From contig CAVUZH010000003.1 of the NCBI GenBank assembly GCA_963745835.1, forward strand, positions 1,152,001 through 1,216,000: a stretch of DNA of 64,000 nucleotides, read 5' to 3'. The DNA comes from an uncultured delta proteobacterium. Its GTDB lineage: Bacteria; Desulfobacterota; Binatia; UBA9968. Made by a program: the position numbers and the translations under genes. This document shows, one piece after another, positions 40,449 through 52,220 of the stretch. Under the pieces are notes generated by a model, which searched no databases, was not told where the DNA came from, and was given only the letters and a program-made list of their open reading frames with translations. How positions within the stretch are numbered: the first letter of the stretch is position 1; every line of letters begins with the position of its first letter.

Positions 40449-40913
40449 CTATTGATTTTCCCCGGCCCGAGATTGTTGAATCGCCTCGACAATTGCGTCG
40501 GCTTCAAGACCCAGTTCCAGGGTCTCGATCAGGTCACTGTAACGATCAGGATCTATGATCGCCTTCACTTCCGGCTCGAAGACGTGATATACGGGTAAAC
40601 CCAATTCGACGCCACCGAGCGGCCCGGCATAGGTCGGATCGCCGCGGGTCATGGTTTCGAACTGCACGCGCGCCGCATCGACGTTGGGTGCGCCGAGTAG
40701 CACGACGAGATCATCCGCACCGTATTCCTCTGCGAGTTGTTTGACTCGACCTTGAACCTCAAGGTCCACCGCGCCGGCGGCAGTTCAAACAAAGCACTGG
40801 GTGGTCGCGTAAACTACCTCAGCGCCGAGATTCTCGATGGCCTGTTCAATGGTATGGGCGGGCACCCCGTCGCGTTCGCCGAGGATCGCGATTTTCTTCC
40901 CTCGAAGTTCCAT
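40449..40913 (-). CDS. grdA: Glycine/sarcosine/betaine reductase selenoprotein A (Sec UGA at 40785-40787)
   Basis: GERDGVP, CFV-U-TAAGAVDLE, GDPTYAGPL, LGLPVYHVFEPEVK continuous in one frame across the TGA. Confidence 0.93.
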
Positions 40914-40955
40914 GGAGTTCCTCTCAATCTAAGTTAGCTTGGAAGTTGATTCCGG

Positions 40956-41077
40956 TTATTCCTGTCGTTCCAACATCACCGATATGCCATTTCATTTGTT
41001 ATCACTGTCGTTCTCACCTCACTAACATGCCCATTTCATCTATTATGCCTGTCGCTCCAACATCACCGACATACCAT
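40956..41077. repeat. Three degenerate 43-44-bp tandem copies of the grdC 3' end
   Basis: TTAT..CTGTCG.TC..AC.TCAC..A.AT.CC units start at 40956, 40999 and 41043. Confidence 0.8.
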
Positions 41078-42488
41078 CGCTCAGTTGCGTCATCTGCCCC
41101 AAAAATAAACTAGCTCGGGCAAAAAGAAAACAGCGCTTGAATTGTCCCTGGGTTAGTTCTTGGACTGCATGCGGCATATAAGCCATTGCGGAGGCGATAT
41201 GGCCCTGGGTTGGCGCATAGCCGGGCAATCCCTTTTCTTTCATGAATGCCGCAAGATCGCTTTTTGCCAGCTTGCCCGCCTTGACCAGGACGGCCCCGAG
41301 CATCCGGTAATTTCGCTCCGCAACGTCGCCGCCGTTCGCCGGCAAGGTGATCTCCGGGTTGTGCAATTCGGTGACAAATTTATCGATCGCCGGCACGCCC
41401 AGCTCTAGCCGGTTCAGCGGGTCGACAACCAGTGATTTCAGCTGCTGATCCAATGACGCGCCGGCCGATACCGGATGACGGCCGACGCCGGCCAGATTGA
41501 TAATCGGGCTTTTGCCGTCATCCCGGCCGACCCAGACCGCAACTGCCGCCTGCATGTCTTCCAACACCGGAATGTTTTTTTCAAGATGGTAGAGAAACTT
41601 CATGCCGAGCTTGGGCAGAGACGATCCACCGACAACAATGATATTTTCCGCGACACCGCTTAGCACGAGCGCGGCGGCGGTGACCATCGCAGGAATCGGC
41701 GCGGCGCAAAAATCTTTAACGTCGAAACCGGAAGCCATCTCACAACCGGAAAACTCGGCGATCGCTTTGGCTAAATTGCCGCCGCCGCGCTGATAACGGT
41801 CGCCGACGGCCTCCTCCGAACAGCCCAACACAAAATCGACCTCTTGCTTCTTCAGGCCCGGGTTTCCGGCAAAGATTTCCTCAAGCGACAAAGCCGCCGA
41901 GACCTTGCCACAGAGATTCTCCAACAACACTGTCGCAGATAGAGACTCATCTTCGTGATGCCCGTTGGCGATCCAGCCCACCGGTTCGATCTCACTGCCA
42001 ATAAACAGCGGCAGGCCGTCACCTTGAGCGATAATCGTCTTCAGCTTGTTTGAGTCAACAAGATTCGGAGCAGTCGTTGCAAGCGATCTACAAACGGTCG
42101 ATTGCTGCAGAGGCGCTGCAATCTCATTCCAGAAACGGTCGAGCAAGGCAACATGTTTGAACGGATCCGCCAGCGCGATCAGCGCGAGAAACAATCTTTC
42201 GTCGACGATGCTGCCGAAGGTCTTTCGCTCCTCCGTGAGTGTCGCCTGCTCTCCGAACCACGGTCGGCTGACTGACAATAGTTTCTCAGGCGCTTGCTGC
42301 CCGATGAAAACCTGATTGGGCAAGTAGCCCTGCGCTTGCTGAAAGGACCTAAGACTTCGGTTCAAGTCCGCGAGACGCGCTGGATTGGCGGCAATTTCCC
42401 GTTGCGGTTTTGACCCATACCGTGTCAGACTCGGGGTATGGATCAGGACGCTGGAGGCTGCTTTTACCACGGGTAAAAAATTTGCCAT
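41043..42488 (-). CDS. grdC: Glycine reductase complex component C subunit beta (FabH-like)
   Basis: RYGSKP, NQVFIG, CSEEAVGDRYQRGGGNLAKAIAE, FCAAP, ELHNPEIT, PGYAPTQGHI, SLFLGQMT. Confidence 0.93.
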   Translation of the reverse strand: MANFLPVVKAASSVLIHTPSLTRYGSKPQREIAANPARLADLNRSLRSFQQAQGYLPNQVFIGQQAPEKLLSVSRPWFGEQATLTEERKTFGSIVDERLFLALIALADPFKHVALLDRFWNEIAAPLQQSTVCRSLATTAPNLVDSNKLKTIIAQGDGLPLFIGSEIEPVGWIANGHHEDESLSATVLLENLCGKVSAALSLEEIFAGNPGLKKQEVDFVLGCSEEAVGDRYQRGGGNLAKAIAEFSGCEMASGFDVKDFCAAPIPAMVTAAALVLSGVAENIIVVGGSSLPKLGMKFLYHLEKNIPVLEDMQAAVAVWVGRDDGKSPIINLAGVGRHPVSAGASLDQQLKSLVVDPLNRLELGVPAIDKFVTELHNPEITLPANGGDVAERNYRMLGAVLVKAGKLAKSDLAAFMKEKGLPGYAPTQGHIASAMAYMPHAVQELTQGQFKRCFLFARASLFLGQMTQLSDGMSVMLERQA

Positions 42489-49924: not shown

Positions 49925-51229
49925 TCAGTAAGCATTGCATCGCCAGCTTTGACTCCCCCAATTATCGACGCCGCCGATCAACATGTCGCGCGCATCCAGG
50001 GTTATTTTCCCCATCGCTGGAACAACCGGCGCTCCGGGGTAAGTCAAAATCGAAAATTCCTTATACGGTCCGACCACACGCTCGGGCACGGGAAGTTCGA
50101 GCCAACGATCTCTGCTGCCACTGCTGACTACCGCATCGGCCTGCGACAGGTAGTAAAGCAACGGTGAATCGACACCGTCCTTGCCACCGAACTCGTAGGT
50201 GACCAGCACGGTTTTGATGCGGCGCTGTTCGCAAGCGCGAATGGTCAGCATCAATTCAACGAATGCATTGCCGGAACCAATCCACGCAACCAGCGCGCCG
50301 GCGGCCCCGAGGGTCGCTGCCAGCTGAGACGCGCTGTGCGCCGCCACCTCTTTCCCCAGGAAAGTGTCGAACTGAATGCGTTCGAGGATCACCCCGAGAA
50401 AATTAATCTGCTTGCCGTGCTGGCGGCACAATCCCAGTGCCAACGGATGATTTTGCCAGTCCCAAGTAATCGGGAAATGGCCAACCGCTCGAGTGGCGGT
50501 CACGGTGATCGCGCCGTCGAGTAGTTCGTTCGGGTGCACAAACGTCGCCAGTGAATCGCGAATCGGCAAGCCGTAGTAACTCACGCCCGAGTGAACGTTA
50601 TGGCTATCCGTGAGACAACCTTGAATCAACACGACCGCCGGCAAGTCCGGCCGCGTATCGTTTAGATCGAAGGCTTCGGTGCTTTCGGCGTGGGTGCCGA
50701 CGGTGAGTTCGGCAAGTCGCTGCGCCACCTTCAGCTCCGCGCCTTGAATCGCCTGATGCGCGTCGAGATCTGAGAGCCCTTGTTTAAGCCGTATCACAAG
50801 CACCAGCCCAAGCAGGGAACTAAACCGCGAAGCATCCGCGCCCGGTCCCCACATATCCAGAAGCGCGCTTCGCTGCACCGCCAGGCCGGCGCGGACTGTT
50901 CCCTCGTAGGCAGCGGTGGCTATTACTGCCATTCCAGAGAGACGATGGGTTGTGCCCTCACCGACATGCTCTACCGGGTTTAACGTACCCGGAAACACCT
51001 GAGTTTGGCAGCCCACTTTTACCCGTGGCTCGACGATATCGCGGATCCCTGTCACCCGGACTTTCTCGCCTGGATGAACCACCGCCAGGGACGCATCTTC
51101 GATGCGTCGGTCCTCCAACATTAGATCCGTCAAGGCTCGCTGATCCACTTCCACAATCCCGCGGTCATAATGAAACCTTTTTCCCAGGTTAATCTGTTTC
51201 ACAGGAAAGTCGGCGAGATCTAGCCGCAT
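49925..51229 (-). CDS. Reductase component B proprotein (GrdE/PrdA family), paralogue 3
   Basis: Same motifs (RDIVEPRVK, HPNELLDGAI, WDWQNHP). Confidence 0.88.
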   Translation of the reverse strand: MRLDLADFPVKQINLGKRFHYDRGIVEVDQRALTDLMLEDRRIEDASLAVVHPGEKVRVTGIRDIVEPRVKVGCQTQVFPGTLNPVEHVGEGTTHRLSGMAVIATAAYEGTVRAGLAVQRSALLDMWGPGADASRFSSLLGLVLVIRLKQGLSDLDAHQAIQGAELKVAQRLAELTVGTHAESTEAFDLNDTRPDLPAVVLIQGCLTDSHNVHSGVSYYGLPIRDSLATFVHPNELLDGAITVTATRAVGHFPITWDWQNHPLALGLCRQHGKQINFLGVILERIQFDTFLGKEVAAHSASQLAATLGAAGALVAWIGSGNAFVELMLTIRACEQRRIKTVLVTYEFGGKDGVDSPLLYYLSQADAVVSSGSRDRWLELPVPERVVGPYKEFSILTYPGAPVVPAMGKITLDARDMLIGGVDNWGSQSWRCNAY

Positions 51230-51233
51230 CGGT

Positions 51234-52220
51234 TTACCGCGAACGTTCAAAGGCACCTTCTTTCTCTAGCTTGCGGACGAGCCGATCGTCGACCAAGTCT
51301 TCGGCTTTGAGCTGGCGAATTTTCTCGTTGCTGGTTCCGAGCAAGCGGATGGCATTGCGGATGCCATCGGCGTTCGGATAAATGCGCCGCTCATAAAGCG
51401 TCCGCATGAGCTCATAGCCTTCTTCAGCATCCTGGAAGCGCGCCAAGCGCAGTCCTTTATGGAGACTGGTCATGACACTGGTCTTGTTTTCCGGCTTCTC
51501 GATGTATGCCGTAGCCTGGGTCATCGCTCGAAGCACCTTTTCAACCGTTTCCGGTGACGATTTGAGAAAGCTCCGCCGCACGAAAACGCCGGTGCTTTGA
51601 TAAGGGATCTTCAAGCTGGCAAGATCGCCGAGCACATTGAATCCCTGACGCTTCATGAGCGCTCCGAAGGTATAGCCCAAGTAAGTACCCTCGATCAGGT
51701 TGGTGGCCAGCGCCTGCGCTAGAACCGCTTCATCGCCGACGATTCTCAGGTTGATTCCGTCACGTTTGGGCTCGATGCCCCAGTGATCCAACACCAGCAT
51801 CGTAATCATCCAGATGCCGCCGCCGATGCTTTGGACGCCGATGTTGCGGCCTTTCAACTGTGCGGGAGTTTTGATCTGCGGATGAACGACGAAAGTACCG
51901 GTAAGCCGATTGACCAAGCCGGCAACGAATACACCGTCCAAGCCGCCGGCCACCGCACCAAGCGTAACGCCGGTGCCGGAACCGAAATAAAATTGAGACT
52001 CACCTGCGGCTAACGCCGAAAGCGCAACGTTCCCCGCGCGGACATATACAAGGCGCGCGTCCAGATCCTGTTTGCGGAAAAATCCCTGGTCCTCGGCGAC
52101 CAGAAGAGCGCCCGCGGTCCGTTCATTGAAACTGGCGTATGAAATCACCGTCTGCGTAGCCGCTTGGACGTATGAAGCTATAACTAGCAGCGCAATGGTG
52201 AAACTTATTCGAAGACGCAT
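51234..52220 (-). CDS. ABC transporter substrate-binding protein (NMT1/SsuA-like)
   Basis: VAEDQGFFRKQDLD, QLKGRNIGV; RBS GGAGG. Confidence 0.88.
   Translation of the reverse strand: MRLRISFTIALLVIASYVQAATQTVISYASFNERTAGALLVAEDQGFFRKQDLDARLVYVRAGNVALSALAAGESQFYFGSGTGVTLGAVAGGLDGVFVAGLVNRLTGTFVVHPQIKTPAQLKGRNIGVQSIGGGIWMITMLVLDHWGIEPKRDGINLRIVGDEAVLAQALATNLIEGTYLGYTFGALMKRQGFNVLGDLASLKIPYQSTGVFVRRSFLKSSPETVEKVLRAMTQATAYIEKPENKTSVMTSLHKGLRLARFQDAEEGYELMRTLYERRIYPNADGIRNAIRLLGTSNEKIRQLKAEDLVDDRLVRKLEKEGAFERSR

Follow-up and report, generated by a model that had tools for sequence, protein, structure and literature searches.

Gene content of the cluster

The window, a stretch of 64,000 nucleotides, contains a cluster of genes related to glycine reductase (Grd), all on the minus strand, in the order SBP (binding protein), GrdE3, SBP, GrdE2, an IS110 element, GrdB, GrdE1, GrdC and GrdA (Table 1). 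This order and these identities agree with an earlier interpretation made from the letters alone (the sequence-only reading). The host is a soil-dwelling member of Binatia, represented by a genome bin whose contamination is 9.33%.

Table 1. Features of the cluster, with positions in the window and supporting matches.
Feature	Position	Strand	Evidence
SBP1, periplasmic, NMT1/SsuA-like	51234-52238	-	PF09084, 60.2 bits
GrdE3	49925-51229	-	PF09338, 299 bits; motif VTATRAVGHFPITWDWQNHP at 50444-50503
SBP2, periplasmic, SBP_bac_8/6 type	48708-49781	-	PF13416, 57.2 bits; upstream of GrdE2
GrdE2	47162-48469	-	PF09338, 312.4 bits; motif VDTTRSGRGYYPTTWDWQNHP at 47681-47743
IS110-family element in the GrdE2-GrdB spacer	45591-47088 (about)	-	transposase ORF 45629-46855; NF033542, 148 bits (cut-off 140)
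GrdB-type selenoprotein B	44060-45400	-	TIGR01918, 436.5 bits (cut-off 65.45); Sec354 = TGA 44339-44341
GrdE1	42749-44053	-	PF09338, 299.1 bits; motif VNATRGIGYFPITWDWQNHP at 43268-43327
GrdC, thiolase/KAS-III-like component C beta subunit	41043-42521	-	NF040746, 515.6 bits (cut-off 450)
GrdA, selenoprotein A	40449-40913	-	NF040748, 199.1 bits (cut-off 130); Sec43 = TGA 40785-40787

The frames of all cluster genes are open, apart from two selenocysteine (Sec) codons. GrdA and GrdC pass curated cut-offs, as does GrdB at the subfamily level; against the specific models, GrdB stays below the cut-offs for GrdB (396.7 of 602.2 bits), GrdF (423.8 of 800) and GrdH (398.5 of 775). The three GrdE paralogues match the family domain and pass no specific model, with GrdG scores of 208.6 (GrdE1), 232.8 (GrdE2) and 217.5 bits (GrdE3) against a cut-off of 780. 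The longest ORF of GrdE3 extends to 51256. SBP1, directly upstream of GrdE3, has a signal-peptide-like stretch at its N-terminus and scores 39.5 bits with the SsuA_fam model TIGR01728, far under the cut-off of 163.5. SBP2 is remotely similar to binders of Fe3+, 2-aminoethylphosphonate and PLP (PhnS2 58.2 bits, cut-off 392.75), and its top PDB match is 7f6p (E 1.1e-14).

The in-frame TGA of GrdA sits in CFVUTAAG, and that of GrdB in ATUGTCSRSGA, where canonical proteins read STUGTCTRCGA. The hairpin following the UGA has a z of -2.11 in GrdA, and is no better than shuffles in GrdB (z -1.09). Genes for selA, selB, selD and tRNA-Sec are located elsewhere in the genome. The proportion of three GrdE to one GrdB, pointed out in the sequence-only reading, holds for the cluster but not for the genome, where GrdE-family genes number five and genes for GrdB-like selenoproteins three; both additional GrdB-like genes read STUGTSTRSGA.

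Missing cleavage cysteine in the GrdE paralogues

As canonical reference, four GrdE sequences were taken whose partner GrdB passes TIGR01917. All four show SGNCVSAC at the aligned place, in line with the motif GNCVSAC given in the sequence-only reading. The cluster paralogues instead read VNATR, VDTTR and VTATR, within the strings VNATRGIGYF, VDTTRSGRGYY and VTATRAVGHF, each starting at residue 243 and followed by P.TWDWQNHP, exactly as first quoted. The cysteine giving rise to the pyruvoyl group is thus absent, its position being occupied by Ala245 in GrdE1, Thr245 in GrdE2 and Ala in GrdE3. A motif of the P.TWDWQNHP type was found in 84 sequences, only two of which (L049 and L076) keep the Asn-Cys dipeptide, and these two fix the register of the alignment.

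A second alignment, its register off by one, sets the conserved Thr246 against the canonical Cys. This placement would suit a reductase of glycine or another amine whose carbonyl comes from elsewhere, by self-cleavage at Thr245 or Thr246 to give an oxobutyryl group, or from a cofactor on another protein. Thr246 ahead of Arg247 is nearly invariant across the clade, and since two clade members retain Asn-Cys, the ancestor was probably self-processing. Those same two members place the Cys one residue before Thr246, where the Ala of GrdE1 and GrdE3 cannot form a carbonyl, and deep members carry Val or Ile in place of the Thr (MVR in L051, CIR in L076). Nor do we know of a comparable natural cofactor formed from Thr, and we consider such an amine reductase very unlikely, although the Thr of GrdE2 at the Cys position may undergo a different self-processing.

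A GrdE without the cysteine has precedent. GrdI lacks the cleavage cysteine, consistent with the earlier claim that it is not processed like GrdE, and FarE, according to its description, likewise lacks processing cysteines (PMC10838667). Without a pyruvoyl cysteine, the substrates of the cluster enzymes should need no Schiff base.

A tree including GrdE and GrdI had been set beforehand as a refuting test, and the paralogues cluster with neither. They fall inside a 36-row clade (SH-aLRT 100, stem 1.45) separate from canonical GrdE (SH-aLRT 97), GrdI of betaine reductase (95) and FarE of fluoroacetate reductase (100), and GrdE2 lies in a 9-row subclade (SH-aLRT 100). The Grd system is present in 30 of the 41 genomes of the order, and a literature search found no paper on this Grd-type cluster. 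Within the glycine-reductase-like family, the cluster probably represents a branch not described before. The proposal of an undescribed reductase class is partly supported, by the separate clade and the lack of a detected grdD (see below); its substrate class and acyl chemistry are inferred.

GrdD, GrdC and the comparison with known reductases

GrdD is a PlsX-like subunit that produces acetyl phosphate. The absence of grdD from the cluster, as originally reported, extends to the whole genome, where the best match to NF040747 scores 22.7 bits (cut-off 350) and PF02504 is matched by a single gene, the PlsX of contig C24. None of the 151 genomes of the class has GrdD above the cut-off; GrdC exceeds its cut-off in 15 of them, including the single-contig genomes G034, G052, G070 and G142. 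Because PlsX and an acetate kinase (AckA, 427.6 bits) are present, the host may still form and consume acetyl phosphate. Across the order, AckA was detected in just 16 of the 30 genomes bearing Grd, and Pta in none of the 41. GrdC keeps the cysteine of its FCAAP motif (41697-41711) and, in an alignment with three canonical GrdC, lacks their C-terminal tail of ~30 residues. With GrdD missing, a thioester on GrdC would have to be resolved in another way. Transfer to CoA, giving acetyl-CoA, would be the most likely fate; hydrolysis, or phosphorolysis by another protein, would be alternatives.

The pairing of GrdE genes with binding proteins recurs across genomes. Of the 27 GrdE2-type genes with enough sequence upstream, 22 are immediately preceded by an SBP2-type gene, in keeping with the dedicated binding proteins proposed earlier, and an SBP1 orthologue adjoins GrdE3-type genes in six of nine loci with such room. 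GrdE1-type genes have a GrdB gene upstream in 20 cases and GrdC downstream in 11. SBP genes are abundant in the host genome (tblastn matches: 271 NMT1-type, 100 SBP2-type), so that SBP adjacency seen in a single genome would carry little weight. GrdE matches outnumber GrdB matches (108 versus 82), and the excess holds individually in 23 of the order's 30 genomes with Grd. This fits the earlier proposal that one GrdB may be shared by several GrdE.

Betaine reductase (GrdH/GrdI of the Peptoclostridium/Eubacterium acidaminophilum type; represented by Acidaminobacter, Tissierella and Anoxynatronum loci L226-L229) shares with the cluster a cysteine-less GrdE-family subunit, a GrdB-family selenoprotein partner, and the use of GrdA and GrdC. 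A divergent enzyme of this type would act on glycine betaine, or on closely related N-methylated compounds, and yield trimethylamine and acetyl phosphate, the housekeeping PlsX or GrdC alone replacing GrdD. The AckA and PlsX of the host fit this idea, and betaines are common soil osmolytes. However, the paralogues lie outside the GrdI clade and lack its motif (SGSF/YM..SSKW.TYDFQN; SGSFMPCSSKW.TYDFQN at the GrdI site, VNATR..P.TWDWQNHP in the cluster), GrdB reaches about half of the GrdH cut-off and reads UxxCxxS, not UxxCxxC, at its Sec motif. The cluster also differs in lacking GrdD and in having ABC-type SBPs as its adjoining transport genes. The patchy AckA and missing Pta in the order count against acetyl phosphate, and the number of GrdE-family matches in each genome, three to seven, with an SBP type for each subtype, argues for several substrates. 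We regard a betaine reductase as unlikely.

Fluoroacetate reductase of Cloacibacillus (FarB/FarE, NF053623) provides a non-amine precedent without processing cysteines and with a variant Sec motif, and grdC and grdD appear in the gene maps of strain MFA1 (PMC10838667). The FarB motif STUGTS[ST]RGG is Cys-less, as in the two extra GrdB-like genes of the host. FarE differs from the cluster paralogues in a deletion at the site and its own long branch in the tree, and they score 101-115 bits (GrdE3 109.7) against the FarE cut-off of 675.

Canonical glycine reductase (GrdA, GrdB, GrdE, GrdC, GrdD and TrxA/TrxB; loci L219-L222) has in common with the cluster the CxxU of GrdA, the Sec position of GrdB, the FCAAP of GrdC and a full-length GrdE domain. 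The cluster departs from it in lacking the Asn-Cys site, GrdD and trx genes, in a GrdC without the C-terminal tail or the second Cys of CSEEACGD, and in a host with oxidases. D-proline reductase (PrdA/PrdB) likewise combines a selenoprotein B homologue with a GrdE/PrdA-family subunit and works without GrdD, but PrdA carries a Thr-Cys cleavage site, and the cluster GrdE score only 18.8-29 bits with the PrdA model (cut-off 700). To our knowledge, proline reductase involves neither GrdA nor GrdC.

Conservation, oxygen and a proposed reaction path

A thioredoxin gene was not found in the cluster or among the scanned ORFs of the window, so that its reported absence stands locally; genome-wide it does not, as TrxB and four paralogues are located elsewhere. 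The window contains dioxygenase, Rieske and monooxygenase genes, confirming the oxygenases noted earlier, and the genome has three homologues of haem-copper oxidase subunit I. The Grd enzymes known to us operate in strict anaerobes.

Given that the host respires oxygen, the main task of GrdB and GrdE might be redox defence, as a selenium peroxidase for instance, and not catabolism; GrdB reportedly has peroxidase activity, stabilised by GrdE fragments, according to one paper. GrdA and GrdC, neither with a role in peroxide reduction, are nevertheless kept, and the presence of binding proteins specific to each paralogue suggests that substrates are imported, making this function highly improbable.

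The limits of the IS110 element were set by comparison with L009, in which the flanks are contiguous. Two more copies were located, on contigs C14 and C16, and orthologous clusters lack the element. L009 and L012 have the IS-less cluster in identical order, and L010 matches it except for an additional NMT1-type SBP gene ahead of GrdB. In a search of soil RNA libraries, the IS-less joint (45588 to 47089) was found in one run, and contigs from four libraries, 93-99% alike, cover GrdA, GrdC, GrdE1, GrdB, GrdE2, SBP2 and GrdE3, which is not proof of transcription. By standing between GrdB-GrdE1-GrdC-GrdA and the four genes upstream, the element may interfere with expression in this strain.

An insertion within the cluster, in an organism with oxidases and oxygenases, could also mark a decaying or silent relic in an aerobe no longer using it. 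Against this stand the open frames, purifying selection on all eight genes (dN/dS values of 0.03-0.11 versus L010), the position of the element in a spacer and its absence from relatives, the retained Sec machinery, the spread of the system in the order and the related contigs in the RNA libraries. We consider a relic extremely improbable.

We favor, as the probable explanation, a working operon of a distinct, Binatia-centred Grd branch: a modular reductase acting on substrates for which no Schiff base is required, and releasing the acyl group independently of GrdD. By analogy with known Grd enzymes, periplasmic binding proteins would bring substrates for uptake, and the GrdB selenoprotein would form a substrate-specific 'protein B' with each GrdE paralogue. 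The GrdB selenolate would attack the carbon beside a carboxylate, displacing the leaving group, and the carboxymethyl (or acyl-methyl) group would pass to the selenocysteine of GrdA, and from there to the thiolase-like GrdC, whose retained cysteine would accept it as a thioester. Oxidised GrdA would be re-reduced by the housekeeping thioredoxin system. Glycine, sarcosine and similar primary or secondary amines would not be expected as substrates of such an enzyme; candidates would be compounds with a good intrinsic leaving group, such as a quaternary ammonium, sulfonium, halide, or other anionic or aryloxy group.

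Gene content of the cluster and its selenoproteins

The cluster at 40449-52238 contains nine genes, every one on the minus strand. The gene order and the peptide strings that had been quoted from the sequence alone were both exact. Family assignments are listed in the table below.

Genes of the cluster and the family models that they match
Gene	Position	Strand	Model	Score (bits)	Cut-off (bits)
NMT1/SsuA-like binding protein		-	PF09084	60.2	
GrdE3		-	PF09338	299	
SBP_bac_8-type binding protein		-	PF13416	57.2	
GrdE2		-	PF09338	312.4	
IS110 transposase		-	NF033542	148	140
GrdB		-	TIGR01918	436.5	65.45
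GrdE1		-	PF09338	299.1	
GrdC	41043-42521	-	NF040746	515.6	450
GrdA		-	NF040748	199.1	130

Full-length GrdB requires one TGA to be read as selenocysteine (Sec354 in ATUGTCSRSGA), as does full-length GrdA (Sec43 in CFVUTAAG, TGA at 40785-40787). The GrdB Sec column is invariant in 7/7 aligned relatives (a conserved TUG site), and GrdA contains CxxU with an in-frame TGA, as in selenoprotein A. The hairpin 3' of the GrdB UGA folded no better than shuffled sequences (z -1.09, 29/200 folding as well) and was therefore not counted as SECIS evidence; the GrdA hairpin was somewhat better (z -2.11, 6/200 shuffles).

The sequence-only reading had called for a search of the window's own genome (G000) for selABCD. 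The search found selA (608.6 bits), selB (394.3 bits) and selD (383.4 bits, with one in-frame TGA in the match) in one block at C22:65479-70161, and tRNA-Sec on contig C13. The same reading had reported no thioredoxin, which holds for the cluster and not for the genome: a TrxB is encoded elsewhere in G000 (418.4 bits, cut-off 343.45), so the thioredoxin system is missing from the cluster only. Four TrxB-like genes score below this cut-off. A TrxB-like gene at C17:19079-19927 (265.5 bits) contains one in-frame TGA, and is either a selenoprotein gene or broken.

None of the specific NCBIfam GrdE-type models was reached by the three GrdE paralogues, which scored 208.6-232.8 bits with the GrdG model (cut-off 780), 101.2-115.4 bits with the FarE model NF053623 (cut-off 675) and 18.8-29 bits with the PrdA model TIGR04480 (cut-off 700). 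GrdB likewise fell below the cut-offs of the GrdB (396.7 bits, cut-off 602.2), GrdF (423.8 bits, cut-off 800) and GrdH (398.5 bits, cut-off 775) models. PDB sequence searches with GrdE2 and GrdB found no relative, and the active site lacks a structural template. SBP2, the SBP_bac_8-type protein encoded upstream of GrdE2, has only remote PDB relatives (binders of Fe3+ and PLP, the strongest at E 1e-14), and the NMT1-type SBP encoded upstream of GrdE3 has one, a 'putative exported protein' (E 1.2e-5), so no ligand can be named for either.

Elsewhere in the window, a 108-residue ORF at 33252-33578 matches the octopine/nopaline dehydrogenase helical domain at positions 2-45 of 150 only, and is probably a gene fragment.

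The former cleavage site and the phylogeny of the GrdE paralogues

According to Andreesen and co-workers, the pyruvoyl group reportedly binds amines, and GrdD is said to form acetyl phosphate. PMC10838667 and PMC13188914 touch on these roles indirectly.

For reference, all PF09338 genes of five cultured Firmicutes were collected with their neighbourhoods, and the partner selenoproteins were classified by model. Four partners exceed the GrdB cut-off of 602.2 for glycine reductase (761-810 bits), and four the GrdH cut-off of 775 for betaine reductase (804-852 bits), which a further GrdH-like partner narrowly misses (773.7 bits). Two of a third, GrdF-like kind are under all cut-offs. In the alignment, the GrdE proteins of the four GrdB partners read SGNCVSAC at the cleavage site, and GrdI reads SGSFMPCSS or GGSYMCCSS. 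The window paralogues read VNATRG (GrdE1), VDTTRS (GrdE2) and VTATRA (GrdE3), with N-A, D-T and T-A in place of the N-C of the four canonical GrdE, which puts Ala245, Thr245 and Ala245, respectively, at the cysteine position. An alignment of 110 sequences moved the register by one, placing the conserved Thr246 under the Cys. Asn-Cys is kept in 2/84 sequences with the P.TWDWQNHP-type motif of the clade (VNCTRG at locus L049 and PNCIRQ at locus L076), and these two sequences support the first register, in which the Cys would correspond to position 245.

The window paralogues share the lack of a cleavage Cys with betaine reductase GrdI, and two further GrdE-family genes of G000 likewise lack it. 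FarE from a Synergistaceae genome (868 and 822 bits) has a deletion at the cleavage site. The conserved Arg247 and the WDWQNHP loop, located at the former cleavage site, are candidate substrate-binding elements.

A maximum-likelihood tree was constructed from 60 rows, after removing rows shorter than 395 residues and thinning at 82% identity from 104; support values are from a quick search with SH-aLRT only. GrdE1, GrdE2 and GrdE3 fall in one 36-row clade (support 100, stem 1.45), apart from canonical GrdE (97), GrdI (95), FarE (100) and the two distant paralogues of G000 (100). FarE forms its own branch, with which the window paralogues do not group. Long branches meet among FarE, the distant paralogues, L058 and PrdA, leaving the order among those groups unresolved in the tree, and the separateness of the 36-row clade is independent of them. 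The paralogues are thus in neither the GrdE nor the GrdI clade; clustering with either would have counted against the sequence-only reading. Betaine reductase differs in both components, as GrdI is in a separate clade from the window paralogues and the window GrdB is below the GrdH cut-off. The 71 related loci are mostly from MAGs named 'Candidatus Binatia' or 'Deltaproteobacteria bacterium', and the best 120 protein relatives, all with generic names, have 68-95% identity.

Absence of GrdD and sequence features of GrdC

G000 is 97.1% complete, with 9.33% contamination. Its best match to GrdD, at 22.7 bits (cut-off 350), is PlsX, the sole PF02504 gene, so that the lack of grdD noted earlier for the cluster extends to the genome. 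Across the class, GrdD exceeded the cut-off in 0/151 genomes, versus 15/151 for GrdC, four of these being single-contig genomes. The lack of GrdD is therefore a trait of the lineage, and not an assembly gap.

GrdA genes were also sought with a pattern from the window's own GrdA motif, giving at least 120 stretches in many genomes. GrdD was over the cut-off in 0/5 GrdA-motif genomes of other phyla (Thermoleophilia, Anaerolineales, Acidoferrum, Acidimicrobiales and one Pseudonocardia bin), or 0/4 without G161, which is flagged as unpublished. With the G161 loci and the Acidimicrobiales fragments left out, Asn-Cys is absent from the seven GrdE-like proteins of three of these genomes. In the Anaerolineales, Acidoferrum and Thermoleophilia MAGs (L251, L252, L254, L256, L257, L260 and L261), GrdE-like genes lacking this site go with varied Sec motifs in the GrdB-like proteins and with no GrdD over the cut-off. 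Systems lacking both GrdD and the pyruvoyl site may be widespread beyond Firmicutes and Synergistota.

Alignment with three canonical GrdC sequences (L223:1973-3520, which is not a GrdC, was disregarded) showed that Binatia GrdC retains the FCAAP cysteine. It lacks the C-terminal tail of ~30 residues present in canonical GrdC, and reads CSEEAVGD in place of CSEEACGD, with the loss of the second cysteine. Both losses may be linked to the loss of GrdD. The flanks of five related loci have nothing in common beyond the core, and no conserved gene that might replace GrdD or thioredoxin was seen there.

Modularity, physiological setting and possible function

The cluster order recurs without the IS at L009 and L012, and at L010 with one extra NMT1-type SBP gene before GrdB; fragments of the cluster are present at L011, L013, L016, L021 and L022. 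Comparison with L010 gave dN/dS of 0.03-0.11 in all eight genes, the ratios being rough because dS is saturated (> 1). The IS110 element, ~1.5 kb long, has inserted cleanly into the GrdE2-GrdB spacer, and two more copies occur elsewhere in G000. A dispersed repeat of ~70 bases (67 blastn matches in the genome) is present at window positions 47089-47160, beside the IS110 insertion, and 42690-42744, in the GrdE1-GrdC spacer, and also lies between GrdE-like and GrdB-like genes at C3:761161-761230. It is abutted by all three IS110 copies and may therefore be the IS110 target.

The neighbours of 74 full-length GrdE genes at 71 loci were surveyed. An SBP2-type gene is located directly upstream of 22/27 GrdE2-type genes with room, and an NMT1-type SBP gene upstream of 6/9 GrdE3-type genes. 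GrdE1-type genes are preceded by GrdB in 20/35 cases and followed by GrdC in 11. Among 41 sampled genomes of the order, GrdE and GrdB occur in the identical 30. Counted as matches, which are not copy numbers, GrdE gave 108 versus 82 for GrdB, and exceeded GrdB in 23 genomes, equalled it in 6 and was fewer in 1.

Binding-protein genes are greatly expanded in the 7.28 Mb genome, the NMT1-type SBP giving 271 tblastn matches (259 of at least 200 residues) and SBP2 giving 100. With such numbers, we considered whether SBP genes might adjoin GrdE genes by chance; for SBP2-GrdE2 this was rejected, because the pair recurs across genomes at the frequency found in the survey. The orphan SBP2 might have its membrane partner ~18 kb from the cluster, where an ABC permease containing two BPD_transp_1 domains adjoins another SBP_bac_6/8-type protein (window 28653-31508).

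Two further pairs of GrdE-like and GrdB-like genes are present on the same contig, at C3:673713-676349 (L006:1471-4107) and C3:759875-762622 (L005:1501 onward). Both GrdB-like genes contain an in-frame TGA in STUGTSTRSGA and, like FarB, have no Cys after the Sec. In other Binatia (L245, L247), this GrdB-like type adjoins its own GrdC-GrdA.

The sequence-only reading had noted oxygenases in the organism, and the window does encode a LigB-type dioxygenase, a Rieske/LigXa-like oxygenase and a luciferase-like monooxygenase, together with glyoxalase-fold and UbiD-family proteins. Aromatic-catabolic-looking genes, for the UbiD-family decarboxylase (244.7 bits, narrowly below the cut-off of 244.85), the dioxygenase, the glyoxalase-fold protein and the Rieske/LigXa-like oxygenase, occupy 52538-58828, directly upstream of the cluster; the UbiD gene adjoins the cluster in L009 too. 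G000 contains three homologues of haem-copper oxidase subunit I, and an acetate kinase (427.6 bits). Acetate kinase is present in 16/30 Grd-bearing genomes of the order versus 8/11 without Grd, and Pta in 0/41. Contigs from four soil RNA libraries of four studies, 93-99% alike to the cluster and no proof of transcription, cover GrdA, GrdC, GrdE1, GrdB, the IS, GrdE2, SBP2 and GrdE3; one spans SBP2 and GrdE2, and one carries the IS-less joint.

In textbooks, Grd-type reductases belong to strict anaerobes that ferment amino acids, and the related Prd enzyme reduces proline. To our knowledge, the Grd substrate classes number only four: glycine, sarcosine, betaine and, recently, fluoroacetate. G000 has the defining parts of a Grd system, namely the Sec machinery, GrdC and both selenoproteins, A and B, and these are under selection. 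It lacks the pyruvoyl cysteine, by which the textbook enzyme is tied to amines, and GrdD, which links that enzyme to acetyl phosphate. The system is most economically read as a modular reductase acting on substrates that carry a good leaving group. From the thiolase-like GrdC, the acyl thioester would then be transferred to CoA, or released otherwise. Searches of the literature, mostly outside subscription journals, on GrdE/GrdI/pyruvoyl, fluoroacetate reductase, Binatia selenoproteins and grdC/grdD found no account of the 36-row clade or of a GrdC system that lacks GrdD, and no paper linking the Binatia lineage with glycine reductase; the annotation table of a MAG paper may list the genes. 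A preprint on new selenoprotein families and a paper on Binatota of sponges have no bearing on the cluster.

A bolder proposal, which we regard as rather improbable, is that Grd-like modules (a binding protein and GrdE, sometimes with GrdB) radiated in Binatia and apparently in other oxygen-respiring soil and groundwater lineages as a general reductive 'C-X lyase' for non-amine alpha-substituted acetates, with GrdC alone passing the acetyl group directly to CoA. Candidate substrates would be sulfoacetate, phosphonoacetate, aryloxyacetates, haloacetates, and sulfonium or quaternary ammonium acetates. If true, catabolism would have a new route into acetyl-CoA, and a selenoenzyme family would be at work outside strict anaerobes.

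The Grd selenium machinery is found here in a large soil bacterium with oxidases, where it has expanded into several specificity modules that each have a dedicated binding protein. The two binding proteins and the three GrdE paralogues offer handles for testing. If active, the modules would add to the substrates known to undergo reductive C-X cleavage, would capture the acyl group by a different route, and would extend the ecological range of selenoenzymes to aerated soils.
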